Assembly: GCA_964106645.2 (NCBI GenBank)
Contig: CAXKZF020000068.1
Strand: one strand, 5' to 3'
DNA from: Podarcis pityusensis
Taxonomy: Eukaryota
DNA: 55,178 bases
Made by a program: the position numbers and the translations under genes. Of the stretch, positions 1,765 to 49,895 are shown piece after piece. Under the pieces are notes generated by a model. The model saw only the letters and a list, made by a program, of their open reading frames with translations. It did not search any database and had not been told where the DNA came from. How positions within the stretch are numbered: position 1 is the first letter of the stretch; each line of letters opens with the position of its first letter.

Positions 1765-1773
1765 GAGAAACAC

Positions 1774-2550
1774 ATGACCTGGACAGGAGATCCCGTCTGG
1801 CTCGCAGATGTCTTGCGCGCTGAGGGAATCAAAGTCGTCGAATACCCCGGCTGGAAAGACCGCGGACACGGCGACATGGGCACGATCTGGGGTGTCGTCG
1901 CACACCACACCGGCAACAACCCGCCCGGCAACAACCCCGGATACATCGCGAACCATCCGAGTCTCGGCTTGTGCTCGCAGATTCACCTGTCCCGAGATGG
2001 TGTCGCCACCGTCGTCGGTGTGGGTGTCGCCTGGCATGCCGGCAGCGGATCGTACCCAGGATTGCCGACCAACGGTGCGAATGAACGCACCATCGGTATC
2101 GAGGCGGAGAACAACGGCACCGAAGGTTGGTCGCCCGCGCAGTACGACGCGTATGTGCGGTGCTGCGCTGCGATCCTCCGGAAGGTCGGTCAGCCTGCCT
2201 CGCATGCGATCGGCCACAAGGAGTGGGCTGGTGCGGCGCAGGGCAAGTGGGATCCCGGCGGAATGGACATGAACAAGTTCCGCGCAGACATTCAAGCTCG
2301 AATCGATAACAAGCAGGAGGCTCCCGTGGGTAGCTCGGAAGTGAAGCAGGTACAAGACTTTGTCGCTGGGTTTTGTGGACCGATTGGTTCAGATGTTAAG
2401 GACGTTCGGCAGCAGCTGACGGGTGGACGTGACGCGGGCGAGTACCCCGGCTGGGACCAGTTAGGGGACCGCACCCTTGTCAATGCGTTGGCTGCGATCG
2501 GCGCGAAACTCGGGATCGATGGTTTCAAGGACCCGAAGGCAGGTAAGTGA
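1774..2550 (+). CDS. Endolysin (lysin A), N-acetylmuramoyl-L-alanine amidase type 2
   Basis: Zn-amidase motifs VVAHHT, AWHAG, IGIEAEN and IGHKEW...KWDPG; actinophage-type C-terminus GWDQLGDRTLV; SD AGGAG. Confidence 0.93.
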   Translation: MTWTGDPVWLADVLRAEGIKVVEYPGWKDRGHGDMGTIWGVVAHHTGNNPPGNNPGYIANHPSLGLCSQIHLSRDGVATVVGVGVAWHAGSGSYPGLPTNGANERTIGIEAENNGTEGWSPAQYDAYVRCCAAILRKVGQPASHAIGHKEWAGAAQGKWDPGGMDMNKFRADIQARIDNKQEAPVGSSEVKQVQDFVAGFCGPIGSDVKDVRQQLTGGRDAGEYPGWDQLGDRTLVNALAAIGAKLGIDGFKDPKAGK

Positions 2551-2831
2551 TGACTGCTGATTCTGGTTTGGATGGTTTCGCGAAGTCGTATGTGCAGAAC
2601 ATTCCGTTCGTGAAGCAGAACCGCAAGACGATCGCGAATGTTGTTGGTTTGCTGGCGAATGTGCTGGTGCTGTTGGTCGGGTTGCCGATCTCGGGTACCG
2701 CGCAGGTTGTGTTGGCGATCAGCATTCAGGGTGTGTTTGCGGTGTCGGCGTGGTTGGTGCCGAATGCGATCACACCGCAGCAGGCTTCGGAACTCGACGA
2801 GTACGTCGGCCGACACCGCAAGCAAGGGTGA
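2547..2831 (+). CDS. Holin
   Basis: 94 aa with two hydrophobic segments and an RKTIA...VPN pattern; overlaps the lysin stop. Confidence 0.75.
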   Translation: MMTADSGLDGFAKSYVQNIPFVKQNRKTIANVVGLLANVLVLLVGLPISGTAQVVLAISIQGVFAVSAWLVPNAITPQQASELDEYVGRHRKQG

Positions 2832-3118
2832 TGGGGGAGTTCTTTTCCGCGCTCCCCATTGAGGGGGGTGTCGTCGTCGGGTTCGTCGTCGGTGTCTTCC
2901 TCATGATCGCGAGAGGTGTCCTCGTCGTCGGCGCTCAGCATCGTGAGCAACTGGACGCTGAGCGGCAGGCGAACACGTACCTCCGTTCAGCGTTGGACAA
3001 GGCGTTAACGCTGAACGGTGAGGACGCCAAGACCATCGCGAAGCTATCGGCCACGTCTGATCTGTCGGCGCGGCTACTTGAGGAGTGGCGGAAAGAGTCA
3101 GCTCAGGGGGCGTCGTGA
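2831..3118 (+). CDS. Membrane protein in lysis cassette
   Basis: TGATG-coupled to the holin; N-terminal TM segment (GVVVGFVVGVFLMIARG) followed by a helical tail. Confidence 0.7.
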   Translation: MGEFFSALPIEGGVVVGFVVGVFLMIARGVLVVGAQHREQLDAERQANTYLRSALDKALTLNGEDAKTIAKLSATSDLSARLLEEWRKESAQGAS

Positions 3119-3312
3119 GGTGGCGTCGGCGTCAACACGCCGAGAACGAAACAGTCACCGAAGCACGGTTGCTGGACGAGGAAGTGGATAAGCGGTTGGC
3201 GGCGTCTCGTCGCGCCCGCCCGGACCACGAGCGTCGCGGGCAGCGTGTTCAGGATCAGATGGTGCACAACCACTTCGGTGAGTTGTTCCGGCTGAGTATG
3301 GAAGGGCGATGA
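3115..3312 (+). CDS. Small lysis-cassette protein
   Basis: GTGA overlap; C-terminal NHFGE motif of the type seen in actinophage lysis-adjacent genes. Confidence 0.6.
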   Translation: MRWRRRQHAENETVTEARLLDEEVDKRLAASRRARPDHERRGQRVQDQMVHNHFGELFRLSMEGR

Positions 3313-3629
3313 TGCTCAGAGAAGTCGGTAACTGGCTGTTGGTGTTCCTCACGTTGGTGTGGTGCACGTTCACTCTGATCTATGCGTTTCGGTCGAAGTG
3401 GTGGGCGAATGAGGTTGGTCGGGTGTTGTTGCCCGAGAAGGTGTTGACGTGTCTGGTGTTGATTCAGGTGGCTGCGTCGGCGATGTCGAATTCGTTGTAT
3501 CCGGGGCGGGATGTGATTCGCATTGTTTTGTATGCGGGTTGTGCGGTTTCGGTGTTGGTGTTGACGGTTGTGTTGGTGCGTGTGCAGAGGCGTGAGCGTC
3601 GATGTCGATCTAAGTGGGGTGAGCACTGA
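3309..3629 (+). CDS. Putative second holin-like membrane protein (3 TM)
   Basis: Three hydrophobic stretches with WW..EVGR and YPGRD..R motifs. Confidence 0.65.
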   Translation: MMLREVGNWLLVFLTLVWCTFTLIYAFRSKWWANEVGRVLLPEKVLTCLVLIQVAASAMSNSLYPGRDVIRIVLYAGCAVSVLVLTVVLVRVQRRERRCRSKWGEH

Positions 3630-4492
3630 TGGAGAAGTTGCCTCCCGGCAAGCCTCGGGATCAAGACATTTGGGGGACGTTCAAAAACAACTGGTTCAGC
3701 CAGATTTTTGCGGGGTTCGCGAACATCGGCCAGCTGCTCGGCAGCATCGCTGATGCGTTCCTGGGTCGTGGATCCTTCGGTCTTGGACCACTGAAAGAGA
3801 TCAACGACCGCGGCATCCTGATCACCGGATATGGAAACCAGATCGCGAGCTTGGAGAACGTCACACGTACTGGCGTGACAACCCCGGCGTGGGCGTCCAC
3901 TGGCGGTCGGGACCTGGTTTCATTCCCTGACACGATGATGCAGTACCTCAGATATACGGGCGAGTTTGGCAGCGAAACGACTGAGACGCCGGTGTTTAAC
4001 CCTGACAAGCGTTCGGCAGAGTTCGCTTTCATACGTGGCGGCCTTGACCGAGCCACGCCACTAGAAGTACTGCGCATCATTACTGGCAGCGACGCCAGTT
4101 TCTTCGGGATCGACGCCTGGTATCTGGGGATCTACGGGTATGACAAGCCTAACAATCGAATGATCAAGATCTGGGATTCTGGAGACATCAAAGCGATCTT
4201 GTCCAGCCAGCGACGCAGGTACCACATATCAACAGGATTGTCTTTGATGGCCGAGCCTGACCAACTGTTCGCTGTTGCATCACTTCAGATCGCGCCAGGC
4301 TTGGGTCAACGAACCCGGGGGCTGGGCGCCATCACGCTAACCGGGATCTCCGAGGAATCGGGCACTGTACCGCAAGCGCGTCACGCCTCGCTCGCGAATC
4401 AGTCCGTTCTTCCATCTGCCGTCTCTATGAATTCGTTTTCGTACAACAAGGAACGTCTGATGTGGGCGTCGTTAGGAGCTTCAGCGACATGA
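3629..4492 (+). CDS. Minor tail protein
   Basis: 287 aa, coupled start, beta-rich C-terminal domain, lies among tail genes. Confidence 0.6.
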   Translation: MEKLPPGKPRDQDIWGTFKNNWFSQIFAGFANIGQLLGSIADAFLGRGSFGLGPLKEINDRGILITGYGNQIASLENVTRTGVTTPAWASTGGRDLVSFPDTMMQYLRYTGEFGSETTETPVFNPDKRSAEFAFIRGGLDRATPLEVLRIITGSDASFFGIDAWYLGIYGYDKPNNRMIKIWDSGDIKAILSSQRRRYHISTGLSLMAEPDQLFAVASLQIAPGLGQRTRGLGAITLTGISEESGTVPQARHASLANQSVLPSAVSMNSFSYNKERLMWASLGASAT

Positions 4493-4770
4493 TGGCGGAC
4501 GGAAAGCTTTGTGTCACAGCTGAGGAAGTCGAGGAGTGGGCGAAACCTGCGTTGGATGTTTTCGGTCCTGTCGCACCACACCTGTGGATCATTGATCTAT
4601 CAACCGGCGCTACGCGAGTAATTCGGTCCGCAGATTACGAGGACCTTCCGGCTGGGTGGGCGTTGCTGATGACGGGACCTGAGCCGCTTTGGGTTGCGCA
4701 ATGGGATGGCGATTGGCAGCGCGCTTGCGATGAACAACTCAACCCGTTACTGGCGGAGGTGGTGGTCTGA
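4489..4770 (+). CDS. Hypothetical protein
   Basis: ATGA overlap with SD AGGAG. Confidence 0.6.
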   Translation: MMADGKLCVTAEEVEEWAKPALDVFGPVAPHLWIIDLSTGATRVIRSADYEDLPAGWALLMTGPEPLWVAQWDGDWQRACDEQLNPLLAEVVV

Positions 4771-5207
4771 TGCCTGTTATTTCTGATCGGTTGACTGATG
4801 GTGCGAAGTTGGGTGTTGGTGCGGAGATTGTGTTCACGGTCCGCGACATCCGCGACAGTGTGGCGCATGATGCGATCCTCGGCCCCGCACGCACCACCGT
4901 CCCCGTGAATGCGACGACCGGGCTGTTCACTAGTCCGATGTTGGATCCTGGCCCGTACTGGGTGGGGATCCGTTGGTCGAGATCCAATCCAACGCATGAT
5001 GTTTACCCCGTTGAAGTCCCCGCTGAGTCGGGGACTTTCCGTTTGTGGCCGTTGATCGACGCCGGCGCCCCGCCACCTCCCGCCGAGTCGGATGGATTCA
5101 TCCGCAACGGCGGCGGCATCTCCCGCCAAGTCCGAACCACTGTCGCCGAATTCGCGGCGACCCCCTCACCAGACCCCGAAACCCTCTACATAGTTTTCGA
5201 ATCCTAG
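4770..5207 (+). CDS. Minor tail / fibre-associated protein
   Basis: Ends with the AEFAA...PDPETLYIV pattern seen in fibre adaptor proteins. Confidence 0.6.
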   Translation: MPVISDRLTDGAKLGVGAEIVFTVRDIRDSVAHDAILGPARTTVPVNATTGLFTSPMLDPGPYWVGIRWSRSNPTHDVYPVEVPAESGTFRLWPLIDAGAPPPPAESDGFIRNGGGISRQVRTTVAEFAATPSPDPETLYIVFES

Positions 5208-5216
5208 GAGACCGAC

Positions 5217-5654
5217 ATGGCAGCATCAGGCAAGCTCTACGGCCTCGCCTTCAAAAGCATGGTGAACGGCGAGATCAACTGGACCTCGCACACCATCAAG
5301 GCGATGCTCTGCACGAGCGCGTACACCCCGAATCAGGACACCCACCAGTACAAGTCGTCCGTGACAAACGAGTCCGCGGGCACTGGCTACACCGCTGGTG
5401 GTGTGGCGTTGGCGGGTAAGACGGTTAACTACACCGCAGGAACCAACACTCTGATTCTGGATGCGTCGGATACGCAGTGGCCCGACTCGACAGTCACGGG
5501 CCGTTATTTGGTGCTGTACGACGACACGCCGTCTACGGATGCGACGAAGCCCCTCATCGGGTACATCGATTTCGGCGCTGACGTGTCCACTACGGCAGGT
5601 GTTTTCACCAGTGTGTGGGATGCCGCCGGAATCATCGGCTTCACCACCCCGTAA
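5217..5654 (+). CDS. Minor tail (virion structural) protein
   Basis: IKAML..SAYTP...GTGYTAGG...LIGYIDFG pattern; SD AGGAG. Confidence 0.7.
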   Translation: MAASGKLYGLAFKSMVNGEINWTSHTIKAMLCTSAYTPNQDTHQYKSSVTNESAGTGYTAGGVALAGKTVNYTAGTNTLILDASDTQWPDSTVTGRYLVLYDDTPSTDATKPLIGYIDFGADVSTTAGVFTSVWDAAGIIGFTTP

Positions 5655-5669
5655 GCAGGAGGCGTCACG

Positions 5670-6791
5670 ATGGGCTTGTTCAACCGCGGCCAAGCCGCAT
5701 CGGCGCTGATCTTGGATGGCAAGCGAGCTGTCCGTGCGTATCTCGGTGATCAACTGGTGTGGGACGGCACGATGGATGCCTTCGTGCCGATTCCTCAAAT
5801 TCTGGTGTCGGTCGTGATGGCAGACCCGGTTGTGTCGGCTACTGTTCGCACCGTAGCACCGCTCATCACTGCCTCGGCTCAGGTTTACGAACCGTCCGTC
5901 TCCGGAACGGCAACTGTCCGACCCGAAACAGCAATACTCGTAGCTGGTGTTGTCTATGCGCCCGATGTCTCGGCCGAGGCGTTGATCGAGGTACCTGCGA
6001 TTTCGGTGTCAGCGATCGTGCTGGCACCCACTGTGTCCGAGGCGTTCGATGCGACAGTCGAAGTGCCGTTCATCCAGGTGACTGCTGGCATGTACTCGCC
6101 TAAGATCACCGCGGACTACGCGGCTACCGTTCCGATCATCGCGGCGTTCGCAGAGTTGTTGGCTCCGTTGGTGACCGCAACGGGAACAGCTGTGATCAAT
6201 GCTCCGATGATCGCGGTAACTGGGTCAGTGAACGCGCCGGCAGTGATCGGTTCAAGTGCAGTGACAGCCCCTCTGATTGCGGTTTCAGCGACTGTGTACG
6301 CGCCCGAGATTCGGCGGGACGCGAAGGTCATCGCGCCGTCGATCACGGGCACAGCAACGGCTTACGTACCGAACGTTCAGGCGATCAACTTCAGCCCGTC
6401 TGGGATGACGAAGAACGGTAACTGGGTTCCGACGGCCAATGGGGCGTGGCTTGTCGTGCCCGCGTGGACAGCGGATTCCGGTTCGACAGTATCCGGCGAT
6501 GGTGTTCAAGCTCGGGGCGCGAAGGCGAATGCTGTCGTGTCAGGGCAACTCAGCATTACTCTGTCGACCGGCGCTTACCAGGTGAGTGTGCGGCTGAAAG
6601 TAGATGGCGTAGTCGTGAAGACCATCACGGACTACCCCCTGACCGGATACGCGACGACGAATGTTCCAATCGCATCCGATCCGATGGCAATCACCACCGG
6701 TCAAGTCGCGACGATCGAATGCTGGTTCACGAACTTCTCGAACTCGTTCCCGATCCAATCCGGAGCGAACACCTACGTCCGCATCACCTGA
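5670..6791 (+). CDS. Tail fibre-like protein with ~22-aa repeats
   Basis: About nine P-x-I-x-V-x-A-x-V-x-x-P-x-V repeats followed by a C-terminal beta domain; SD AGGAGG. Confidence 0.65.
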   Translation: MGLFNRGQAASALILDGKRAVRAYLGDQLVWDGTMDAFVPIPQILVSVVMADPVVSATVRTVAPLITASAQVYEPSVSGTATVRPETAILVAGVVYAPDVSAEALIEVPAISVSAIVLAPTVSEAFDATVEVPFIQVTAGMYSPKITADYAATVPIIAAFAELLAPLVTATGTAVINAPMIAVTGSVNAPAVIGSSAVTAPLIAVSATVYAPEIRRDAKVIAPSITGTATAYVPNVQAINFSPSGMTKNGNWVPTANGAWLVVPAWTADSGSTVSGDGVQARGAKANAVVSGQLSITLSTGAYQVSVRLKVDGVVVKTITDYPLTGYATTNVPIASDPMAITTGQVATIECWFTNFSNSFPIQSGANTYVRIT

Positions 6792-6812
6792 CCGGGCTGA
6801 GACAATCAGGGT

Positions 6813-6950
6813 ATGGCTTTCGAACCTGACCCCGACACCGGCCAACCCGGCACCGTGAAACTCGCTGACGGACGCTGGGCGTACCGCTGGAAAGATGCAC
6901 CGGACGCCGAACTGATCATCATGAAGCAACCGGAAACACCCGCAGAATGA
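6813..6950 (+). CDS. Small hypothetical protein (45 aa, MAFEPDPDTGQPGTVKLADGRWAYRWK...)
   Basis: Fills the gap between the last tail gene and the terminator; below the ORF-track cutoff. Confidence 0.5.
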   Translation: MAFEPDPDTGQPGTVKLADGRWAYRWKDAPDAELIIMKQPETPAE

Positions 6951-6951
6951 C

Positions 6952-6988
6952 AAAAGCCCCCAACCTCATCGCGAGGTTGGGGGCTTTT
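6952..6988. terminator. Bidirectional intrinsic terminator
   Basis: Perfect 16-bp inverted repeat AAAAGCCCCCAACCTC-atcgc-GAGGTTGGGGGCTTTT between convergent genes. Confidence 0.92.
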
Positions 6989-7003
6989 CGTCGTCTAACG
7001 ATG

Positions 7004-7351
7004 TCAGCAGTCGACTAGGTCGGCTCGCTTCACTGAGGAGAAGAAGTCATCAGCCTCAGGCATGGAGTTTTCCCAGCCTGGGGTGTGGCCTCCGGTTTGA
7101 TGGATGGCGGTCCGCGCTGCGGCGATGGCGTCGTTGATCGCACCACCCTCGGTGTCGGCGTCGACATACATCGAGATGGTGAGTGTGCGCTCTCCGAAGT
7201 CGACACCGAGGTCGACGTCGCTCACACCGGTCAGTCCCTCGAAGGCATCCATCAATGGGTCGATGATGCTCTCAAGGTCGTTGTTGTCGCGTCGGACTCC
7301 GACTATCAGTTCGACGTAGTAGGTGGTGGTGCCTACTTCTGCTCGAAGCAT
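7004..7351 (-). CDS. HicB-like antitoxin (acidic)
   Basis: Downstream of and overlapping the HicA-like gene; SD GAGGAGG before ATG 7351; very acidic, with a DTEGGAINDAIAA helix. Confidence 0.55.
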   Translation of the reverse strand: MLRAEVGTTTYYVELIVGVRRDNNDLESIIDPLMDAFEGLTGVSDVDLGVDFGERTLTISMYVDADTEGGAINDAIAAARTAIHQTGGHTPGWENSMPEADDFFSSVKRADLVDC

Positions 7352-7548
7352 CCTGTCCTCCTCAGCTTTCCTTCTAGATTCTGTTGATACATAGGGTTCG
7401 ATGGCGTCAGATGCACTGTGCTGATATGGAGCTTGCAAGGACAGTAGACCTTGTAGTACTTGGTCTTGACTACCCGCCAGCCTTGATTTTCGAGCTCTTT
7501 TAACAGTGCTTCCAGTTCCTTGATCGGATGACGGGGTCTAGTCGGCAT
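7333..7548 (-). CDS. HicA-like toxin
   Basis: 71-aa basic protein with the HicA dsRBD-like pattern ELEALLKELENQGWRV...YKVYCP...STVHLTPS; -10 TATATT 6 nt before ATG (leaderless). Confidence 0.65.
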   Translation of the reverse strand: MPTRPRHPIKELEALLKELENQGWRVVKTKYYKVYCPCKLHISTVHLTPSNPMYQQNLEGKLRRTGCFEQK

Positions 7549-7804
7549 CCGGGCAATATATCCCTTGTATCGGGTCGTGCACCCACTATGCGCTACTTGC
7601 CGCTACATTCCATCACTAAGTCGTCAAAATTACATTGCGTGTTACGTCACGATCAGGACACGATACGCGTTGCTGCCATGGTACGTCGAAGCCCACCTGT
7701 GCTGCCGAATGAGTCAGGTGGGCATCGAACTATTCAGTTGTGGTGCGGCGATCACTGACGGCTTCCCTTCCGTCTCCTGCCAACAGTGCCGACGCTACCA
7801 GGTA

Positions 7805-7820
7805 TCGAACAGATGTGCGA
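7805..7820. promoter_or_regulatory. LexA (SOS) box candidate
   Basis: TCGAAC-agat-GTGCGA has one mismatch to the actinobacterial consensus TCGAAC-N4-GTTCGA; a minus-strand -10 TAGCGT lies at 7792-7797. Confidence 0.55.
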
Positions 7821-7829
7821 GGGAAAGTG

Positions 7830-8033
7830 TGTTGACCGCGTCAACATGACCATCCATAACCGCTGGTCAACTGGCTGCGTCAACAATCACGGAAGACGCA
7901 ATAAATACTCCCTGACCTGCGCGTATACCCTGTTTTCGCAGGGGTTCGAATCCCCTTAGCTCCACCATATCGATGCAGGTCAGAGACCTGCAAGGTGAAA
8001 AAAATGTTGACGGTCAACACGCCACGTCAACAC
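7830..8033. other. attP region with integrase arm-type repeats (GTCAACA/TGTTGAC)
   Basis: TGTTGACcgcGTCAACA at 7830-7846, GTCAACA at 7879-7885, TGTTGACgGTCAACAC at 8005-8020 and GTCAACAC at 8026-8033 flank the core. Confidence 0.8.
7939..7967 (+). other. attP: attP common core = 3' end of a tRNA-Ala gene
   Basis: CAGGGGTTCGAATCCCCTTAGCTCCACCA contains a T-arm, an acceptor strand complementary to GGGGCTA, and CCA; it lies just upstream of the integrase. Confidence 0.9.
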
Positions 8034-8057
8034 CTGTCACACAACGACGATACGATG

Positions 8058-8081
8058 ACCTCCCTAACCGGGAGGTTTTTT
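8058..8081 (+). terminator. Intrinsic terminator between attP core and int
   Basis: ACCTCCC-taacc-GGGAGGT followed by a T run. Confidence 0.7.
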
Positions 8082-8087
8082 CGTTTC

Positions 8088-9191
8088 ATGGCATCCATTC
8101 GACCACGAACCACCAAAGCGGGCACGCCCTACTACCAGGTTCTGTACCGGCACAACGGCACGCAATCCTCGGACAGCTTCGACGATCCGAAGGAAGCCAC
8201 CAAGTACAAGAAGCTGTTGGAGCAGATCGGACCCGATGCAGCGCAAGAGCTGATGTTCGGCGCGGAAGCATTACCCGAAGAGATCCCCGCCCTGACGGTG
8301 ACAGAGTGGTGCACCGAGTACATCGACCATCTGACTGGCGTCGAGGAAGCAACGAAGAACAAGTACCGCTCGTACCTCCGCCGCGACATTGATCCGATTC
8401 TTGGTTTTCTGCCGCTATCTGTGGTGAACGAGAAGGCGATCTCGAAGTGGGTCCAGGCGCAGGAGGGATCCTCGAAGACCATCGCCAACAAGCATGGGTT
8501 CTTGTCGGGTGCGTTCAACGGTGCTGTGCGAGCGAATCACATTGAAGTGAACCCGTGTGACGGTCGGAGGTTGCCGGCGCGGCACAAGGAAGATGAGCCG
8601 GTGTTCTTGACTCCAACTGAGTTCGTTCGAGTGCGGGATGTTGTGGTCGAGCAATGGCGTCCGTTGACGGTGTTTCTGGTGTCGACGGGGATGCGGTTCT
8701 CGGAGGCGACTGCGTTTCAGGTGGGCGATCTGAATGTGGAGGAGAAGACGGGACGGATTGTGCGGGCCTGGAAGTACACGGGCGAGGCGAAGCGGAAACT
8801 TGGGCCGCCGAAGTCCCGGAAATCTGTGCGGACGATCAACCTGTCAGATCAGGCGATCGAGGCGTGCGGCGATCTAAAGGGGCGCGCACCGGATGAGTTC
8901 GTGTTCACAAATCGTCTCGGGCGCCCGGTCACTGCTCAACTTTTTCACAACAAGGCGTGGCGGCCGATGATAGCGGAGCTGTCCGACAGATTAGGGAAGA
9001 AGCCGCGGCCACATGATCTTCGGCATTCGTGCGCAAGTTGGATGATCGCGGCCGGGGTGCCGCTGCCTGTCATTCAGCAGCACCTCGGCCACGAGTCGAT
9101 CACGACGACGATCAACATTTACGGGCATCTGGATCGCCGTGCCGCGCAAGCAGCATCGGCAGCCCTCACAGCAGCACTCGAAGGGCTCTGA
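8088..9191 (+). CDS. int: Tyrosine integrase
   Basis: Catalytic motifs TGMRFSE, HDLRH, LGH and NIYGH; N-terminal arm-binding segment MASIRPR; start chosen downstream of attP. Confidence 0.96.
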   Translation: MASIRPRTTKAGTPYYQVLYRHNGTQSSDSFDDPKEATKYKKLLEQIGPDAAQELMFGAEALPEEIPALTVTEWCTEYIDHLTGVEEATKNKYRSYLRRDIDPILGFLPLSVVNEKAISKWVQAQEGSSKTIANKHGFLSGAFNGAVRANHIEVNPCDGRRLPARHKEDEPVFLTPTEFVRVRDVVVEQWRPLTVFLVSTGMRFSEATAFQVGDLNVEEKTGRIVRAWKYTGEAKRKLGPPKSRKSVRTINLSDQAIEACGDLKGRAPDEFVFTNRLGRPVTAQLFHNKAWRPMIAELSDRLGKKPRPHDLRHSCASWMIAAGVPLPVIQQHLGHESITTTINIYGHLDRRAAQAASAALTAALEGL

Positions 9192-9194
9192 CCT

Positions 9195-9854
9195 TTATCG
9201 TGGCAGCTCGCTTTTGTATTGCGGGCAGAAGGCGGAGACTGCCGCGCCAACGAGTTGTCCTGCATTCTCAGGCGTCCAACTGTCAGGGCCGTTGAAGTAG
9301 GTCATCAGCGAAATGTCCATGAACTCTTCGCCTTTCCTGAAGCTGGCGCAGGCTGTTCGTCCGGCTTCGAGTGCCGTTGAATCTGGGGTGTCAGGGAATC
9401 CGATGAGTGTCAGTGTCCCCAGGAATAGGAACTCGGGGTCGTCGGCCGGGTTGTAGTTGGTCGTTGCAGCAGCATGTGAGGTCGTCGTGACTGGTGGTGC
9501 GGCTGCGACGGTTGTTCGCACTGTTGTAGTCGTCGGCCTGACCGTTGTCGTGGTGGTCGGTGCCGCTTCGGATGTGGTGGTTTCTGCGGCGACTGTTTCG
9601 GCATCGTCTTTGCGGTTGGCAAGAGCGTTGACGCCGAAGTATGCGGCGATGAGCACTGCGACTACGCCTGCGCCGATGAGTGCTCGTTTGCGATCTTTGG
9701 CGAGCTTCTCGGGGTCAATGGGCTCGGGTGGCGCGGGTGGTGGTGTCGGTTGAGGCAGGGGCTGTGTGGCACTAGTCCACTGTTGGCCGTCCCAGTAGCG
9801 GAACTGCTGGTTGCCTTCTGGGTCGGGATGCCAGCCGGGGCCAGGTGTGGTCAT
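9195..9854 (-). CDS. DUF2510 + TM + Thr-rich linker + DUF732-like membrane protein
   Basis: PGWHPDP...RYWDGQQWT, one TM helix, a T-rich stalk, then GRTAC...AAVSAFCP. Confidence 0.8.
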   Translation of the reverse strand: MTTPGPGWHPDPEGNQQFRYWDGQQWTSATQPLPQPTPPPAPPEPIDPEKLAKDRKRALIGAGVVAVLIAAYFGVNALANRKDDAETVAAETTTSEAAPTTTTTVRPTTTTVRTTVAAAPPVTTTSHAAATTNYNPADDPEFLFLGTLTLIGFPDTPDSTALEAGRTACASFRKGEEFMDISLMTYFNGPDSWTPENAGQLVGAAVSAFCPQYKSELPR

Positions 9855-9879
9855 TGTCGTGCCTTTCAGGTGGGGGCGC

Positions 9880-10311
9880 TTAGTTTGAGCGTCGGTCCAG
9901 TTCGGAATTAATGTAAGCCCGCTCGTGCGGGGTCAGCGTTCGGACCCGCACGAGAAGCGTGTGCAGGTCTGTCCAGAGTTCCCAGGCGCATTCGTCGTCG
10001 GGCTGTCCTCGCGTCCAAACGAGTGCATTGACGAGAGAGTCGAGAGGGATCAGTAGCCGTGCTGCGAGTTCGTCGACCAGTTTCTCTTCGCGGGCCTCGT
10101 AGCGTGGATCTGTGGAGGGGAGTCCGCGCTCGAGATGGATCAACTCGTGAGTGAGGACTGATCGTCGTGCGGCTTGTGTGAGGGTGCGGCAGATGCATAT
10201 GTCGGTGCCGTCTGTGTAGCCCGCTACGCCCTCGGGGAGTTCGCGGGTGCAGTCGATCACGGTGTCGGCGTGTTTGTTTCGCGCTGTCCGCCAAGGGTGG
10301 TATCGGGTCAT
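9880..10311 (-). CDS. ImmA/IrrE-family Zn metallopeptidase (putative anti-repressor)
   Basis: RSVLTHELIH (HExxH) and E..VDELAARLLIP; directly downstream of the Xre repressor. Confidence 0.88.
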   Translation of the reverse strand: MTRYHPWRTARNKHADTVIDCTRELPEGVAGYTDGTDICICRTLTQAARRSVLTHELIHLERGLPSTDPRYEAREEKLVDELAARLLIPLDSLVNALVWTRGQPDDECAWELWTDLHTLLVRVRTLTPHERAYINSELDRRSN

Positions 10312-10317
10312 GCGCGG

Positions 10318-10340
10318 ACTGTAGACAGTGATACCGACAA
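10318..10340 (-). promoter_or_regulatory. PafBC / RecA-NDp-type DNA-damage promoter for the metallopeptidase
   Basis: The minus strand reads tTGTCGG-tatcactgtc-TA-cag-T-ccgcgc-ATG, an exact TGTCGG-N10-TA-N3-T with leaderless spacing. Confidence 0.75.
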
Positions 10341-10352
10341 CTTAGAACACGA

Positions 10353-10820
10353 CTAGTCGGATCTGGTTTCCTTGTTTCTCCTGGACGCCGCGATTGGCGG
10401 CGAAGCGGTAATCGGACGGACAACCCTGAGCGGTTGATTCTGGGAAGTCTCGTCCTCAGGCTTGACACCGATCTTGCTGGCGGCCATGACTCGGATGATC
10501 TCGTCTAGGGCGTCGCGTTCTCGTTGGTCGAGAAGGTCGGCTTCGGAGGGTGGGGTGTAGGGCTTCGCAACTTCGCGGGTCTGGCCGATCCAGCGGGATA
10601 GTTCGCGTACGTCGATGCGGAGGGCGTCGGCGATCTTAGCGACTGTGGCTGGTTTTGGTTTGGCGTTGCCGGCGCGGATGTTGGTGATGGTAGATGTGCC
10701 GATTCCGAGGTGTTCGGCTAGTGCGCGGTGCGAGGGGGATTCGCCGTCACGCTTGTCCACGAAGCCAGCTTTGACGAGCGCTGCGTCCCACAGATCGTCT
10801 GTGGTGGGTCCGGGGTTCAT
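10353..10820 (-). CDS. Immunity repressor (Xre HTH, no S24 autoprotease domain)
   Basis: HTH SHRALAEHLGIGTSTITNIRAG...TVAKIADAL; divergent from cro. Confidence 0.88.
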   Translation of the reverse strand: MNPGPTTDDLWDAALVKAGFVDKRDGESPSHRALAEHLGIGTSTITNIRAGNAKPKPATVAKIADALRIDVRELSRWIGQTREVAKPYTPPSEADLLDQRERDALDEIIRVMAASKIGVKPEDETSQNQPLRVVRPITASPPIAASRRNKETRSD

Positions 10821-11000
10821 GTCTACAAACGTTCCTCACGGCGGCAGTGTTCGAATAGTCAGAGTGTAGACGCGCTGTCTACAAATTCCATCACTGTGAT
10901 CTGCATTGCTTGAGGTATGGGTCGAAAATCGCCAATTCAGGTGTAGACAAAAGTGTCTACACCGTCTACTGTCTTGTGGGACGGTAGACAGAGCGTCTAC
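10820..11000. promoter_or_regulatory. Immunity switch: GTAGAC-N5/6-GTCTAC operators and rightward promoter
   Basis: Palindromes at 10865-10883, 10942-10961 and 10984-11000; half-sites at 10820-10827 and 10964-10969; TAGACA(10944)-N17-TACTGT(10967). Confidence 0.85.
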
Positions 11001-11022
11001 AGTGAAACGGAAAGGCAAAGCC

Positions 11023-11301
11023 ATGAAAAACAAGCAATCTGAATGGAGGCTCGACGTGATCGTGAACGCCGACCTGTTGGTCGAATACATGGAGTACAAC
11101 GACATGTCCGTCCGAGAACTGGCATCGAGGGTGAAGTGCTCCCACTCCACCATCGGCCACTACCGAACTGGCAAGCGAAAGCACTGCCCGCAGAACCGGG
11201 CGAAGCTGATCGCCAAGGAGCTTCGAGCCCCCAGGAAGGCCCTTTTTATGCCTGAACCGTTGCGTGTCACGCGTGACAAACGACAATTGGTTTCGGCATG
11301 A
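11023..11301 (+). CDS. cro: Cro-like HTH protein
   Basis: MSVRELASRVKCSHSTIGHYRTG...AKLIAKEL; first gene of the rightward early operon; SD GAAAGG. Confidence 0.8.
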   Translation: MKNKQSEWRLDVIVNADLLVEYMEYNDMSVRELASRVKCSHSTIGHYRTGKRKHCPQNRAKLIAKELRAPRKALFMPEPLRVTRDKRQLVSA

Positions 11302-11369
11302 AGGCACGAAAAAGCCCGCCCTCTTGCAGGAGGACGGGCGAGGCAATCACCAATCGGAAGGAAAAGCGA

Positions 11370-11561
11370 ATGCACGTAAAGGATATCACTCCTGAGTTGC
11401 AGGAAGCAGTGGACAGATTTGATGACGTGTTCGACTTTCACTACCCGCATCTGCGGGTTCCGGGGACCGTCGGCGTAACGCACGAAGGCTGCACGGTTGA
11501 GGCCCTCGACGCTGCGACTGACTTGTTCATCGACTCACTGCCTGTGTCGGTGATCCTATGA
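11370..11561 (+). CDS. Hypothetical protein
   Basis: SD GGAAGGA before ATG 11370; ATGA-coupled to the next gene. Confidence 0.6.
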   Translation: MHVKDITPELQEAVDRFDDVFDFHYPHLRVPGTVGVTHEGCTVEALDAATDLFIDSLPVSVIL

Positions 11562-12478
11562 CCACTCTGACTGGATTCCAGCTTCCCGAACCTCTCGCTC
11601 CTGGCACCGCGGAGTGGTGGACGAAGTACTCGGCGTCGAAGGTCGCAGCGATCTGTGGTTTGTCGAAGTGGGACACCGAACGATCGATCTACGACGGCAT
11701 CACAGGCGTAGTGCCGCCGCAGCCGCAGACCGATGTGCAGGGCCGCGGGCATGAGTTCGAGCCGCTGATTCGTGGTTGGTTCTCGAACATGCATCTCGAT
11801 TGGACGATCGAGGAAACGTCGACATGGCAGCACAGTCTTCGTGATTGGCAGACAGCGGATCCGGACGGGATTGTCACGTTGCCTGACGGCACGGTCGAAC
11901 TGTTGGAGATCAAGACAGCCGACGACATTCACTCGTGGGGTGATGAGGTTCCGATCGGTTATCTGGTGCAGGTGATGTGGCAGATGGATGTGATCGGTGC
12001 TCGCCGTACGCATCTCGCGGCGTGCGGTCCGTTCGAACTGTTCCATCGTCGCCCGAAGGTGTTTGTCATCGACTACGACGCTCGGGATGCGGCGGTGCTG
12101 CGGGAGCGGGTGTTGAAGTTCCAGGCGCGTGTTGAGGCTGGCGATCAGCCGGCGGCGGATCATTCGCGTGATTGTGATCGGTTGTCGGTTCGGTATGCGA
12201 ATACATCGATTGCTGATGATCCGGGTGTGGATGTTCCGGCGGAGATCGCGGTTCCGTATTTGGAGGCGTTTGCGGCGGAAGCTGCTGTGGCGCTGGAGAA
12301 GAAGCGGACCGGGTCGGTGCTCCTCGAATACTTGGGTTCGTCGAAGAAGGCGACGTTCAACGGTCACACGATCGCGTCGCGTGTCAATAGCAAGGGTGCG
12401 CCGTCTATCCGCGCCACGTCTGGCCTCGCGGAGAAGGCTCCCGAAATCTTGAAGCCACGAAAGGCAGAAGCAGCATGA
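11558..12478 (+). CDS. YqaJ/RecE-like exonuclease
   Basis: SASKVAAICG, RGHEFE, ADPDG, LEIKT and QVMWQM motifs; lies just upstream of the annealase. Confidence 0.9.
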   Translation: MTTLTGFQLPEPLAPGTAEWWTKYSASKVAAICGLSKWDTERSIYDGITGVVPPQPQTDVQGRGHEFEPLIRGWFSNMHLDWTIEETSTWQHSLRDWQTADPDGIVTLPDGTVELLEIKTADDIHSWGDEVPIGYLVQVMWQMDVIGARRTHLAACGPFELFHRRPKVFVIDYDARDAAVLRERVLKFQARVEAGDQPAADHSRDCDRLSVRYANTSIADDPGVDVPAEIAVPYLEAFAAEAAVALEKKRTGSVLLEYLGSSKKATFNGHTIASRVNSKGAPSIRATSGLAEKAPEILKPRKAEAA

Positions 12479-12687
12479 CTGAGTACCTGATCGCAACGTC
12501 CGGGTGTGATGACACAACACGCGCCTTCGTCATCCTGACCGACGCCGAAGCGGAAACCGTGAAGACGATCGCTTCGGCGATCAACGTTCGCGCCGGAGGC
12601 TGCAAGCCCTCCCTATCCATCAGCCTGTGGGCTGATGCCAGCGCCTATGAACGTGAAGAAGCCACCGAACCGATCGACGAGGACTGA
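12475..12687 (+). CDS. Hypothetical protein
   Basis: Coupled overlaps on both sides. Confidence 0.65.
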   Translation: MTEYLIATSGCDDTTRAFVILTDAEAETVKTIASAINVRAGGCKPSLSISLWADASAYEREEATEPIDED

Positions 12688-13607
12688 TGACGATGACCGA
12701 GATCGCAGTACACACAGGATCCGCACTAGCGGTTTCGCCCGAACAGGACTTCTGGACCCCGAAGCAGGAATCGGCGCTCGCTCAGATCGGCGTCGAGAAA
12801 GCATCGAAAGCTGACTTGGCCGTGTTCTTTCACCAGTGCCAGCGCACCGGCTTGGATCCGTTTGCGCGCCAGATCTACATGATCGAACGCAAGGGGAAGC
12901 AGACCATCCAGACCGGGATCGACGGGTTTCGTCTGATCGCTCGACGCGCTACCGACGCCGCTCGTGGCACGTTCGGCTACGAGGACACCCTGTGGTGCGG
13001 AGAAGACGGCAAGTGGACCGACGTCTGGTTGCAGCGTGAGCAGCCCCGCGCCGCGAAGGTCACCGTGATTCGTGACGGTGCACGCTATCCCGCAATCGCG
13101 CTCTGGAACGAGTACGTGGGAACCAAGTTCAACGGCGATGTGACGCAGATGTGGGCCACGAAGGGCGCACTGATGTTGGCGAAATGCGCTGAGGCGTTGG
13201 CATTGCGTAAGGCATTCCCGCAGGACTTGTCCGGTCTGTACACCTCGGATGAGATGCAGCAGGCGGACAACGGGCAGCAAGGCTCGACTCGTCAGCGCCC
13301 TCAGCAGTCGACGCAAGCACGCCCGCGGTCGATCACTGAAGCGTTGGGTGAACCGTCTGTGGACGTGGATTCTTTGCTTGCTGCGATTGAGGCTGCTGAG
13401 TCGAAGGATGTGTTGCGGGAGCTGTGGAAGCAGACTGCGACGTTGCCGGCGCAGGAGAAGGACGACATTCAGGCGTTGATCATGGGGCGCATTCAGGGGA
13501 TGTCGGAGCCTGAGTCGGATGGCGCCTCGCTGCCTGAGCCTGAGCAGTTGCCGTTGGACGCTGAGCCTGTTGACGCGGAGACGGTGGAAGAGCAGGTGGC
13601 GTCATGA
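12687..13607 (+). CDS. RecT/Bet-like ssDNA annealing protein
   Basis: GLDPFARQIY, QTGIDGFR and MLAKCAEALALRKAFP...LYTSDEM motifs. Confidence 0.92.
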   Translation: MTMTEIAVHTGSALAVSPEQDFWTPKQESALAQIGVEKASKADLAVFFHQCQRTGLDPFARQIYMIERKGKQTIQTGIDGFRLIARRATDAARGTFGYEDTLWCGEDGKWTDVWLQREQPRAAKVTVIRDGARYPAIALWNEYVGTKFNGDVTQMWATKGALMLAKCAEALALRKAFPQDLSGLYTSDEMQQADNGQQGSTRQRPQQSTQARPRSITEALGEPSVDVDSLLAAIEAAESKDVLRELWKQTATLPAQEKDDIQALIMGRIQGMSEPESDGASLPEPEQLPLDAEPVDAETVEEQVAS

Positions 13608-13768
13608 GCCTCTACTTCCGCGATACGTGCACGTGCAGTGGTCCGGTGCCGGGATGGAACCAGCACGAAGCCTGGTGCGGCACTCGTGAGGACCGTGGTG
13701 GCCCGTACAACCGCTGGACACATCCGGACGCGAACCTCCCCACCGAAACCCCCAAGGACGCAGCATGA
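13604..13768 (+). CDS. Small Cys/His protein (54 aa, CTC...H..WC)
   Basis: ATGA overlaps with both neighbours; below the track cutoff. Confidence 0.6.
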   Translation: MSLYFRDTCTCSGPVPGWNQHEAWCGTREDRGGPYNRWTHPDANLPTETPKDAA

Positions 13769-14007
13769 CCTGGACGCGAATCGACTGCGCTCGAAGCGAC
13801 GAAGTGTATGAGGCGATCGAGAACCGTGCTCCGCTCGCGGGACGCTCCGACATGGGCGGTGAGTTCGGCGAACCTCGCATCGAAACCATCTGGGGCAACA
13901 GGGAAACCGAAGTTGAAGTCCTCAAGAACGTGCGCCACCCGCGCTACGAATGGGACTCCCAAGCCGGAGACCGCGAACCCTGCGAACACTACGAATGGAC
14001 AAACTGA
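13765..14007 (+). CDS. Hypothetical protein
   Basis: Coupled ORF. Confidence 0.6.
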   Translation: MTWTRIDCARSDEVYEAIENRAPLAGRSDMGGEFGEPRIETIWGNRETEVEVLKNVRHPRYEWDSQAGDREPCEHYEWTN

Positions 14008-14333
14008 TGACCACTGCTGGTGAGCAGCTCAGGTTGGACGGGCAAGACGCAGCCCTCGCAGCCGCAACAGTCGGACACCACGACCACCCCAACCACATCG
14101 AAACCGCCCTCACCGAACTCATCCGATCCGGCCGCGAATTCTCCGCCGACCACGTCCGCGACGCAGTCCCACCCGAAACCCGCGACTGGCTCCGCGCAGG
14201 CAATGGAAACGTCCTCTCATCCATCATCGGCAATGCGTCACGCCGCGGCCACATCGCCCAAACCGGATGGTGCCAACCCGCACGAAAAGAACGCCACTCC
14301 AACCCGAACCGAGTATGGAAAGGCGCCGCATGA
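14007..14333 (+). CDS. Hypothetical protein (possible winged helix)
   Basis: TGATG-coupled; FSADHVR...G.I...G...RVW pattern. Confidence 0.6.
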   Translation: MTTAGEQLRLDGQDAALAAATVGHHDHPNHIETALTELIRSGREFSADHVRDAVPPETRDWLRAGNGNVLSSIIGNASRRGHIAQTGWCQPARKERHSNPNRVWKGAA

Positions 14334-14539
14334 TCCGCGAAGCCTCACTCCGAGTGCCCATCACCCACCCCAACATCGGCACCTACAGCGCCCTCAGCGA
14401 AGTCACCATCGTCCACAAAGACGAACACGGCTACACCATCTGCCTCGACAACGGACACCCCCGCGGCGGCCTCTGCCACCTCGCCGTCGTCCAACGCAAC
14501 CAGCTGTACATCCCACACGAGAAACGAGAAGCAGCATGA
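14330..14539 (+). CDS. Hypothetical protein
   Basis: ATGA-coupled. Confidence 0.55.
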   Translation: MIREASLRVPITHPNIGTYSALSEVTIVHKDEHGYTICLDNGHPRGGLCHLAVVQRNQLYIPHEKREAA

Positions 14540-14820
14540 CGACCACCGAACAACGCCGGCACATACCACCCGACGAAGTGTTCACCATCGACGAGGCCGC
14601 GCTACGGCTCAGGTGCAGCCCCACCTACTACCGCGAGCAACTGCGATCGCAGAAGTGGCCCGGCAGGAAGATCGCCAACAAGTGGCGCGTCACTGAAGCG
14701 GACATCAAAGAAACCTTGGAGATCGTGTACTCGAATCCGATCTTCCGCCCGCGACCGGATCCGGTGTCAGCCCGCCCTGGCACTCGCCGACGCTACGAAC
14801 GACACAACCGCCGCAAGTAA
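14536..14820 (+). CDS. Excisionase-like HTH DNA-binding protein
   Basis: FTIDEAALRLRCS...GRKIANKWRV (MerR/Xis-type HTH). Confidence 0.75.
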   Translation: MTTTEQRRHIPPDEVFTIDEAALRLRCSPTYYREQLRSQKWPGRKIANKWRVTEADIKETLEIVYSNPIFRPRPDPVSARPGTRRRYERHNRRK

Positions 14821-14833
14821 GGACAGCCCTACC

Positions 14834-15730
14834 GTGCCCAAAGACAAGCGGATCTATATCAATCTGGCGGTGGATATGGACCGCAATCCGAAGTACATCA
14901 ACCTCACAGACGGGCAGAAGTGGTTGATCGTGAAAGCCATCATGCACTGCCGTGAGTACCCCAACGACGGCAATCTGCCGCTGCCTGTGTGGGTGAAGAT
15001 GGGAACAAAGCGCAACAGAATTTCGGTGGAATCTTGCGGAGCGATCACAATTTTTGAATCAAAAAATGTCGCGATTGTTCACGACTATGCCGAACATAAT
15101 CAGACCATCGCGGAGATCGAAAAGTCTCGAAATGAGAAGATCGCCGCAGGTCAGAAGGGGGGCAAGGCCAGGGCAGCGAACCGGGCGCATGCCAACGAAA
15201 CGCAAGCAGACGGGCTAGCAGCTGCTAAGCAGGACCTCAAGCAGAATCAAGCAGAGATAGAGATAGAGAAAGAGAAAGAACTACTTACTTACGTAAGTAG
15301 TTCACCTCACCTAAGAGACGCGCCGGCGAGACCGCGGGGAGTGCGAGACATCGCTGAGCATCTCAACGGGACAGCGCACTCCGCTGAGGCGCACATCATC
15401 GCAAGGGCCTACTCGGATTCCTGCCCGTCGCCAGTCCCAGGCGATTTGATTTCGAAGATCGCGCAAGCTGTCGACGGATGTCTCAAGTCGGGGGTGAGTC
15501 GTGAGCAGATCGAAGCAGGGATCCAGGACTGGGCCGCGTCACCGATGACAGCGGCGTCGATGATTCCCGGATTCGTTCACAAAGCTGCTAACCGACCTGC
15601 TGCACCATCTGACAGCGGAATCGGGAAGGCGACCAAGAAAGCGATGGGATGGGCCGACATGGGCAACCAGCTCGCCCAACGGCAAGCCGAAGGACTCAAC
15701 TCGTCAACACCGAAAGGCATCACCGCATGA
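14834..15730 (+). CDS. Replication initiator protein
   Basis: N-terminal NPK...C.EY.NDG...HDYAEHN pattern, basic linker AGQKGG and internal iteron-like repeats. Confidence 0.7.
   Translation: MPKDKRIYINLAVDMDRNPKYINLTDGQKWLIVKAIMHCREYPNDGNLPLPVWVKMGTKRNRISVESCGAITIFESKNVAIVHDYAEHNQTIAEIEKSRNEKIAAGQKGGKARAANRAHANETQADGLAAAKQDLKQNQAEIEIEKEKELLTYVSSSPHLRDAPARPRGVRDIAEHLNGTAHSAEAHIIARAYSDSCPSPVPGDLISKIAQAVDGCLKSGVSREQIEAGIQDWAASPMTAASMIPGFVHKAANRPAAPSDSGIGKATKKAMGWADMGNQLAQRQAEGLNSSTPKGITA
15203..15303. other. Putative replication origin inside the initiator gene
   Basis: Five CAAGCAG-like heptamers at 10-12 bp spacing, an AG-rich tract and an AT-rich 11-bp palindrome. Confidence 0.6.
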
Positions 15731-16272
15731 ATCTGATCGAAGCGACACCTCAACAACTTTCGGACACTGGCTTGATCATCGGCCGAGCGGCATTGTTCGA
15801 CAACCGATTCAGCGAAGCCGATATCGGGCGTGGAGGTGCGTGGGCGGAGGCTCTCGCCCCGTACAACCTCGAACTCCCGGATGCTCTCAATGCCGTGACT
15901 GTGCACTACCGCAACGAACCATTGCGGATGATCATGCCGGCGGACGTTATCCGGATTGCACGTGAGATTCGGATCGACCGGGCGCAGCGCGAACCTGCCG
16001 TGGATCGGGAGCTGCGGCAATTGCAGCACGACGTGAAGCACGGTTTGGTTCAGGGTGATGCGCAGCTGGGAGGCTTACCGATCGGCGGTGCAGACGGGAA
16101 ACCTGTTCCAGGCGCCTATGCGGTGAACAATGCGATCGAGCATGTGTGCCCGTTGTGTGGGGCTGACGAGTACCAGGCCTGCACGAACAAGGTTTCCGGG
16201 GTGGAGCGGAAAATGCCCTGCCTGCCGAGATTGATGATCGAAGCTGAACCGAATCCGAAGTACGCAAAATGA
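15727..16272 (+). CDS. Putative helicase loader/inhibitor with C-terminal Zn finger
   Basis: DNR...AWAEAL...DALNAV..HY...IMPADV pattern and CPLC...C...C; follows the initiator gene. Confidence 0.6.
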   Translation: MNLIEATPQQLSDTGLIIGRAALFDNRFSEADIGRGGAWAEALAPYNLELPDALNAVTVHYRNEPLRMIMPADVIRIAREIRIDRAQREPAVDRELRQLQHDVKHGLVQGDAQLGGLPIGGADGKPVPGAYAVNNAIEHVCPLCGADEYQACTNKVSGVERKMPCLPRLMIEAEPNPKYAK

Positions 16273-40839: not shown

Positions 40840-40848
40840 GAGAAACAC

Positions 40849-44282: not shown

Positions 44283-44291
44283 GAGACCGAC

Positions 44292-48266: not shown

Positions 48267-48269
48267 CCT

Positions 48270-48954: not shown

Positions 48955-49386
48955 TTAGTTTGAGCGTCGGTCCAGTTCGGAATTAATGTAAGCCCGCTCG
49001 TGCGGGGTCAGCGTTCGGACCCGCACGAGAAGCGTGTGCAGGTCTGTCCAGAGTTCCCAGGCGCATTCGTCGTCGGGCTGTCCTCGCGTCCAAACGAGTG
49101 CATTGACGAGAGAGTCGAGAGGGATCAGTAGCCGTGCTGCGAGTTCGTCGACCAGTTTCTCTTCGCGGGCCTCGTAGCGTGGATCTGTGGAGGGGAGTCC
49201 GCGCTCGAGATGGATCAACTCGTGAGTGAGGACTGATCGTCGTGCGGCTTGTGTGAGGGTGCGGCAGATGCATATGTCGGTGCCGTCTGTGTAGCCCGCT
49301 ACGCCCTCGGGGAGTTCGCGGGTGCAGTCGATCACGGTGTCGGCGTGTTTGTTTCGCGCTGTCCGCCAAGGGTGGTATCGGGTCAT
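48955..49386 (-). CDS. ImmA/IrrE metallopeptidase (copy)
   Basis: Identical repeat copy. Confidence 0.88.
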   Translation of the reverse strand: MTRYHPWRTARNKHADTVIDCTRELPEGVAGYTDGTDICICRTLTQAARRSVLTHELIHLERGLPSTDPRYEAREEKLVDELAARLLIPLDSLVNALVWTRGQPDDECAWELWTDLHTLLVRVRTLTPHERAYINSELDRRSN

Positions 49387-49427
49387 GCGCGGACTGTAGA
49401 CAGTGATACCGACAACTTAGAACACGA

Positions 49428-49895
49428 CTAGTCGGATCTGGTTTCCTTGTTTCTCCTGGACGCCGCGATTGGCGGCGAAGCGGTAATCGGACGGACAACC
49501 CTGAGCGGTTGATTCTGGGAAGTCTCGTCCTCAGGCTTGACACCGATCTTGCTGGCGGCCATGACTCGGATGATCTCGTCTAGGGCGTCGCGTTCTCGTT
49601 GGTCGAGAAGGTCGGCTTCGGAGGGTGGGGTGTAGGGCTTCGCAACTTCGCGGGTCTGGCCGATCCAGCGGGATAGTTCGCGTACGTCGATGCGGAGGGC
49701 GTCGGCGATCTTAGCGACTGTGGCTGGTTTTGGTTTGGCGTTGCCGGCGCGGATGTTGGTGATGGTAGATGTGCCGATTCCGAGGTGTTCGGCTAGTGCG
49801 CGGTGCGAGGGGGATTCGCCGTCACGCTTGTCCACGAAGCCAGCTTTGACGAGCGCTGCGTCCCACAGATCGTCTGTGGTGGGTCCGGGGTTCAT
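49428..49895 (-). CDS. Immunity repressor (copy)
   Basis: Identical repeat copy. Confidence 0.88.
   Translation of the reverse strand: MNPGPTTDDLWDAALVKAGFVDKRDGESPSHRALAEHLGIGTSTITNIRAGNAKPKPATVAKIADALRIDVRELSRWIGQTREVAKPYTPPSEADLLDQRERDALDEIIRVMAASKIGVKPEDETSQNQPLRVVRPITASPPIAASRRNKETRSD

Follow-up and report, generated by a model that had tools for sequence, protein, structure and literature searches.

How does the prophage of an actinobacterium sense DNA damage if its repressor cannot cleave itself? The question is raised by a repressor gene and a protease gene that stand side by side in the window, i.e. the whole stretch of DNA analysed here (55,178 nt). The answer that we favour is that damage would act through the host activator PafBC, which would raise the expression of the phage protease, which in turn would destroy the repressor. 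The genes and sites on which the argument rests, with the closest neighbours, are:

8088..9191, plus strand: tyrosine integrase, convergent with the repressor operon (the ORF runs from 7995, homology begins near the ATG at 8088)
9195..9854, minus strand: gene of a DUF2510/DUF732 membrane protein, downstream of the protease
9880..10311, minus strand: ImmA/IrrE-type (M78/COG2856) zinc metalloprotease, 143 aa, with a peptidase and an HTH-like domain and no GAF domain; HExxH at 10135-10149
10318..10323, minus strand: SigA-type -10 element TACAGT; leaderless TSS predicted from the sequence at 10311
10334..10339, minus strand: PafBC -26 element TGTCGG, at -28 to -23 if +1 is 10311
10353..10820, minus strand: Xre immunity repressor, 155 aa, with an HTH, one helix (probable dimerisation), a disordered tail and no S24 domain
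10377..10394, minus strand: IAASRR motif of the repressor tail (aa 143-148), a candidate site of recognition or cleavage by the protease
11023..11301, plus strand: Cro-like HTH gene, which heads the divergent early operon; a YqaJ/RecE-like gene and then RecT follow
48955..49895, minus strand: second copy of the module, which results from the circular wrap (+39,075) and is not independent

The window consists of a 39,075-bp unit that runs on past its own start (1-16103 recurs at 39076-55178 with zero mismatches), and its gene set is that of a temperate phage: tyrosine integrase, Xre repressor, divergent cro, the YqaJ/RecE-like gene and RecT. The portal protein shares 59.9% identity with its counterpart in Rhodococcus phage REQ3. 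In R. erythropolis KB1 a circular element encodes a repressor near-identical to that of the window as far as residue 116, and its operators and gene order (cro-repressor-protease-DUF732-convergent integrase) agree as well; hence the host of the phage probably belongs to the R. erythropolis group. One 39-kb phage contig with an identical protease also turned up in four MAGs (two Dehalococcoidia, Stappiaceae, Gammaproteobacteria; loci L023-L026). These MAGs are taxonomically unrelated, so the contig was mis-binned and the bin labels are uninformative with regard to the host.

The preliminary description of this DNA had placed a PafBC-type promoter in a 41-bp gap between the two genes, and the sequence read-out bears out the gap, the motif and its spacing. 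On the minus strand the repressor stop codon TAG (10353-10355) is followed by 41 nt and then by the ATG at 10311; TGTCGG (10339-10334) stands at -28 from this ATG, and a 10-nt spacer separates it from TACAGT (10323-10318), which ends 6 nt before the ATG. The motif fits the consensus of PafBC-dependent (RecA-NDp) promoters, tGTCgg(N10)tA(N3)T, in which the -26 element lies at -23 to -28 (PMC8635444; here and below PMC8635444, PMC12828697, PMC6426596, PMC6426606, PMC8072749, PMC12637031 and PMC3121763 are cited from partial texts). With this geometry +1 falls on the A of the ATG (10311). The gene pair pafBC is near-universal in actinobacteria (PMC8635444), from which we presume its presence in the host, itself assigned by inference. 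The strict motif has four matches in the window, which correspond to two unique sites because 1-16103 recurs at 39076-55178: the protease promoter and one site inside the integrase. Shuffled 39-kb sequences contain 0.11 matches on average and at most one in 100 shuffles, compared with the two observed. The site in the integrase (8967-8988, minus strand) is antisense with no ORF behind it, and we treated it as a chance match. A generic sigma-70 scan missed the protease promoter, the terminator search gave nothing in the 41-nt gap, and the best SOS-box match upstream of the protease gene of the window has five mismatches. From its sequence we regard the PafBC promoter of the protease as very probably functional.

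Relatives of the protease are present in 262 phage records (217 from Gordonia, 38 from Mycobacterium, 4 from Rhodococcus). The comparison covered 42 loci, made up of the window, 26 phage records chosen manually from about 266-292 so as to be diverse, 12 GTDB loci and three plasmid records. L024-L026, in which the protein is identical to that of the window, were dropped from the GTDB loci as duplicates. The genome scan was run with 12 close sequences, as broad alignments were too diverged, and gave 16 loci from 118 pattern matches. TGTC[AG]G at -28 to -30 before the start codon, accompanied by two or all three of the -10 bases, was found in 29 of the 42 loci (20 of them strict), whereas none of 1,144 other mechanical ORFs with 3,154 candidate starts passes the same motif test. 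The scan of homologous upstream regions proposed in the preliminary description thus upholds its reading of the promoter. Carrier hosts include Mycobacterium, Gordonia, Tsukamurella, Dietzia and Rhodococcus, and both of the M. abscessus examples examined carry the motif. An alignment of 25 carriers, selected on TGTC[AG] and position only, shows at the positions not used for selection G6 in 25/25, T17 in 25/25, A18 in 23/25 and T22 in 20/25. The proteases of these carriers have a median identity of 42% and fall into 13 clusters at 70%, and between clusters the spacer positions 9-16 are identical at a level of 0.21-0.39. The GTC triplet is kept and the spacer is free, as in a PafBC-dependent promoter; judged from these alignments, the pattern of conservation is that of a selected bipartite promoter and not of shared descent. 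According to the locus annotations, the promoter accompanies the protease whatever the upstream gene. We are therefore highly confident that it is real and family-wide.

The motif fixes the start codons of protease genes annotated with longer upstream starts; at L002, L008, L010, L013 and L020 the annotated start lies 24-210 nt upstream of the one implied by the promoter. Several copies of the protease are annotated as HTH proteins. In the KB1 element (L040, 2001-2430) the protease gene is frameshifted and in a Dietzia MAG (L032, 7998 onward) it contains stops, due to decay or sequencing error, and in both the motif is kept. PafBC-like motifs that face cro were seen in Phistory (L017, 1032, minus strand) and Asapag (L021, 1153, minus strand).

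Many carriers share a further element upstream of TGTC:

L001 1936-1950 (with counterparts in 22 more loci): 15-mer TGTARTTSCWGGTCA, which lies roughly one helical turn upstream of the PafBC element

This 15-mer is conserved in 23 of the 26 carriers examined, 10-11 nt from TGTC in 22 of them; the window is without it. Squirty and Yeezy have it in the repressor/cro gap as well, L033 has it close to a tRNA-like att site, and a GCAGGTCA core flanks the att region of the window (7975-7982). Our guess is that TGTARTTSCWGGTCA is the site of a nucleoid protein; a literature search on its identity found nothing useful.

In 13 of the 42 loci the element is missing from its canonical position. A LexA box (consensus from PMC3381160) precedes the protease in two of these 13 and in none of the 29 carriers, with a background of eight such boxes in 325,608 nt; the remaining 11 have neither element. 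The two boxes are:

L007 1928-1943: LexA box of Rhodococcus phage Mbo4, at -64, perfect
L041 1976-1991: LexA box of the Rhodococcus DMF-1 element, at -25, one mismatch

In these two loci the LexA box may have replaced the PafBC motif, possibly with one origin: Mbo4 and DMF-1 stand on separate branches, and the starred branches alone are also compatible with a single event. Some of the other promoters may be displaced, because TGTC[AG]G was found up to 200 nt upstream in five of the 13 (background 0.08), in three of these together with a -10 (background 0.01). In REQ2, GMA4, Finkle, L027 and L038, which have neither canonical element, the protease gene abuts or overlaps the repressor gene, and several non-carriers of this kind may rely on read-through.

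The protease itself was assigned by a combination of methods. It contains the motif HELIH at aa 55-59, and H55, E56, H59 and the downstream Glu E76 are at least 90% conserved among 111 homologues. Its match to Pfam M78 (PF06114) is weak (E 0.0028, 17.9 bits against a cut-off of 22) and NCBIfam gives no match to it, while a profile of the 111 sequences matches IrrE (3dte) at E 9e-4 and its atlas neighbours are 31-100% PF06114. The structural model (pLDDT 97) matches CapP (Z 10.4, rmsd 4.1, 128 residues aligned) and PprI (Z 9.4, rmsd 4.4, 129 aligned), as well as an M. tuberculosis regulator (Z 9.2); the Foldseek E values are weak (0.03-0.1). In the model the protein has the IrrE/CapP fold, and the peptidase and helical domains fill all 143 aa; the GAF-like domain that Deinococcus-type IrrE/PprI carries at its C-terminus was not found. 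GAF-less ImmA is not stimulated by ssDNA, and induced expression was suggested as one route of its activation (PMC12828697).

The repressor was described earlier as a 155-aa protein without an S24 domain, and this is what Pfam and the model indicate: Pfam finds HTH_3, and the model consists of an HTH domain (7-78), a helix (99-115) and a disordered tail (117-155). No S24 domain was found in any of the 23 upstream repressor candidates at homologous loci either. Close relatives of the repressor are near-identical to it up to about residue 116-130 and then diverge in their tails. Across the loci these tails have a short motif of the hydrophobic-AA-x-R type, which is present in 23 of 31 loci compared with 2.2 in shuffles, the pattern having been chosen after inspection. 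The 31-locus test left out L002, L022, L038 and L044, used L033 without its HTH part, and included the broken proteases of L032 and L040. In it the best partner of a tail was among the top three partners of the corresponding protease in 22 of 31 loci, compared with five of 31 for the HTH domain. The correlation of tail and protease over all pairs is not significant (partial rho 0.11, p=0.06), and the tail of the window has a poor best match (score 29, protease rank 9), with no good partner in the set. Nine tail-sharing pairs have no intervening DNA in common; in the Matteo/CarolAnn, GMA1/BENtherdunthat and Tsukamurella pairs the same tail and protease type go with unrelated HTHs, again without shared intervening DNA. 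Linkage alone therefore does not explain why tails track proteases. In a single case, that of Norvs, the repressor is homologous, no protease is annotated within 3 kb of it, and such a tail is missing. On these comparisons the protease goes with the tail of the repressor and not with its HTH domain, which makes the tail the candidate substrate. The support for cleavage is indirect, from the fold and from this co-variation, and we consider it likely that the protease inactivates the repressor. A shifted-frame tail for the repressor of the window (like the DY.LAA tails) was dropped: read in frame, the tail contains AASRR, looks like the tails of REQ2 and L027, and is shared by P0163 and P0171.

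The operator of the repressor can be written as TGTAGACA-N3/4-TGTCTACA, with three sites in the repressor/cro gap and weaker sequences elsewhere:

10320..10339: predicted degenerate repressor operator, 13/16, which spans the entire PafBC promoter; specific to this phage
10820..10827: one operator half-site, at the start codon of the repressor
10865..10883: operator 1, 15/16, overlapping a TAnnnT that faces the repressor gene
10942..10961: operator 2, 16/16
10983..11001: operator 3, 14/16, which overlaps GTCTACAGT, the probable -10 of cro

The 9-mer GTCTACAGT of the probable cro -10 is identical to a 9-mer at the protease promoter. An operator half-site over the -10 of the protease had been noted previously; the overlap is real, and it is larger than a half-site. 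The sequence at 10320-10339 is the fourth-best operator match in the genome, with nothing else above 11, and shuffled genomes contain 0.08 sites of 13/16. The chance of an operator over the PafBC motif was calculated as 0.0005. This is an underestimate when TACAGT is taken as given for the -10, since the operator half-sites contain TAC; a hand estimate then gives a few in 1,000. As a general feature the overlap was rejected: in a test with 16-nt windows the window (13/16) scored above every one of 22 swapped promoters, which was true of none of the 22 other loci. The KB1 element has the same operators and none over its PafBC promoter. The derepression of the protease upon loss of repressor that had been postulated is hence plausible for this phage and not general, and feedback would be at most a local refinement. 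Whether the repressor indeed binds weakly over the PafBC promoter of this phage, giving a threshold and positive feedback, could on the sequence evidence go either way.

These elements can be joined into a circuit. In the lysogen the Xre repressor, bound to its three operators, would silence cro and the lytic genes, and read-through would supply little protease, if any. DNA damage generates ssDNA and thereby activates the host PafBC, as published. PafBC would then adapt the SigA-RNA polymerase to the -26/-10 promoter, as its sequence and conservation suggest, and a leaderless protease mRNA would be made. The extra protease would recognize the C-terminal tail or the dimerisation region of the repressor and cleave it, upon which cro would be derepressed; in this phage only, weak binding of the repressor over the PafBC promoter could add a threshold and positive feedback. 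The whole chain is the best explanation that we can offer for the main route of damage induction, and a reasonably probable one. Of the damage switch drawn in the preliminary description, the promoter core stands, and a pure off/on switch is too simple. In the uninduced Sbash lysogen genes 40-43 are transcribed, including the IrrE-like gene (PMC6426596). The distance from the end of the Sbash repressor to the protease is 61 nt, similar to the gap of the window, in which no terminator was found. The CarolAnn lysogen points the other way: the available text names genes 45, 44 and 43 as a cotranscribed set, without the protease gene 42 (PMC6426606), which carries the motif. As the Sbash protease is transcribed without induction, PafBC probably boosts the protease above a low basal read-through rather than switching it on.

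The main rival to the full circuit accepts the promoter and regards it as an amplifier only, the true trigger being the post-translational activation (by zinc release, RecA or another factor) of protease made by basal read-through. The expression of Sbash genes 40-43 in the uninduced state (PMC6426596) and the lack of a terminator in the 41-nt gap agree with it, as do the 11 of 42 loci with neither canonical element, at least five of which have the protease gene abutting or overlapping the repressor gene. Moreover, expression of Deinococcus IrrE is not induced and zinc activation has been proposed for GAF-less relatives (PMC8072749), and RecA dependence differs among pneumococcal ImmAR prophages (PMC12637031). 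However, the -26/-10 bases are near-invariant over 13 protease clusters and LexA boxes appear to substitute for them, which argues for selection on damage-induced transcription, and ssDNA does not stimulate ImmA (PMC12828697). We consider an amplifier-only role rather unlikely.

The promoter might instead serve mainly the genes beyond the protease and drive excision, through a DUF3263 HTH protein, the gene of which follows the protease in many phages, or through the integrase, which is co-oriented in several; yet the window and Squirty keep the promoter despite other downstream genes and a convergent integrase. In a related version the protease is a non-cleaving antirepressor or has another substrate. 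The GAF-less homologue Rir binds its repressor with no cleavage detected in vitro (PMC12828697), but the at least 90% conservation of HExxH in 111 homologues and the tracking of the protease by the repressor tails speak against this version, and we find this group of explanations improbable. It is still harder to believe that the motif is read by some other factor (ClgR/'ClpR', another WYL protein or a TGTARTTSCWGGTCA-binding factor) or is a chance or relic sequence. RecA-NDp promoters were formerly assigned to ClpR (PMC3381160), and a second, unexplained element precedes TGTC in 23 of 26 carriers. On the other hand, in the published structure PafB reads the GTC triplet at the same spacing (PMC8635444), the phage consensus is very similar to a PafBC-dependent host site, TTGTCGGTG...AGCT (PMC8682763), and chance is excluded by the 0/1,144 controls.

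Parts of the PafBC-driven circuit have known counterparts. COG2856/XRE pairs were already reported from phages and ICEs (PMC8072749, PMC12637031), and ImmA/ImmR of ICEBs1, Rir/Crh, MpaR and the pneumococcal ImmAR, like the pair in the window, combine a GAF-less HExxH M78 protease with an S24-less Xre repressor in a mobile element; in the partial texts at hand no host DNA-damage promoter is described before their proteases, whereas the protease of the window has a PafBC-type promoter of its own. Tum of coliphage 186, AntC of N15 and GfoA/GftA of Gifsy show the logic proposed here, i.e. a non-cleavable repressor inactivated by a phage protein under a host damage regulator (PMC3121763). They are controlled by loss of LexA and bind the repressor, whereas in the window control would be exerted by an activator (sigma adaptation by PafBC) and the effector is a predicted protease, hence irreversible, inside the immunity cassette. 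The bipartite -26/-10 motif and its spacing are identical to those of the mycobacterial PafBC regulon (RecA-NDp promoters), the targets of which, as far as the partial texts name them, are host repair genes and not a prophage regulator; the upstream 15-mer, usual in the phage loci, is not in the consensus as given in the partial text. Deinococcus IrrE(PprI)/DdrO and CapP/CapH of CBASS have the same peptidase and HTH fold; IrrE has the GAF-like domain that is missing here, both IrrE and CapP are stimulated by ssDNA, and IrrE is not transcriptionally induced (PMC8072749, PMC12828697). In the literature searched, which largely excludes subscription journals and was partly available as extracts, we found no paper that links PafBC or RecA-NDp to a prophage protease. 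The link goes unmentioned in the available parts of a review of SOS-independent responses, a mycobacteriophage review, a PafBC structure preprint and a corynephage preprint, and the word 'phage' is absent from PMC8682763. On the whole the window probably shows a variant of host-controlled antirepressor induction that uses an activator instead of LexA and a protease instead of a binder.

Many Rhodococcus, Gordonia and mycobacterial prophages thus appear to borrow the host PafBC, which could explain how they wake with repressors that do not cleave themselves. The circuit offers a testable answer to the question of damage sensing in such lysogens, and also to how GAF-less ImmA-type proteases are turned on, a question raised in PMC12828697. 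If it is true, the PafBC regulon extends to prophages. The chances seem about even that there is a widespread class of actinobacterial prophages induced via the host PafBC and not RecA/LexA, in which promoter, protease and repressor tail form a module that can be swapped independently of the DNA-binding (immunity) domain, and in which a LexA box now and then takes over as the input. In that case PafBC-selective drugs would induce these prophages even without RecA. Quinolones are reported to be selective inducers of PafBC (PMC8682763), and therefore drug-specific induction is predicted for such prophages, including those of M. abscessus. The phages Sbash, Che9c, Squirty and CarolAnn, as well as an M. 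smegmatis pafBC mutant, already exist for such tests.

Some further features of the window lie around the integrase. A looser PafBC-like site, TGTCAC-N10-TACGAT (8035-8056, plus strand), precedes the probable integrase start at 8088 by 32 nt and is directly followed by a terminator-like hairpin (8057-8077); it could couple the integrase to damage, and its conservation was not seen. We take 7940-7967 to resemble the 3' end of tRNA-Ala or tmRNA and to be the likely attP core; ARAGORN found no tRNA in the window. Two small genes at 7004-7548 (minus strand), without a Pfam match, resemble a HicA/HicB-type toxin-antitoxin pair. In the non-coding stretch between attP and this pair there is an SOS-box-like site with one mismatch (7805-7820).
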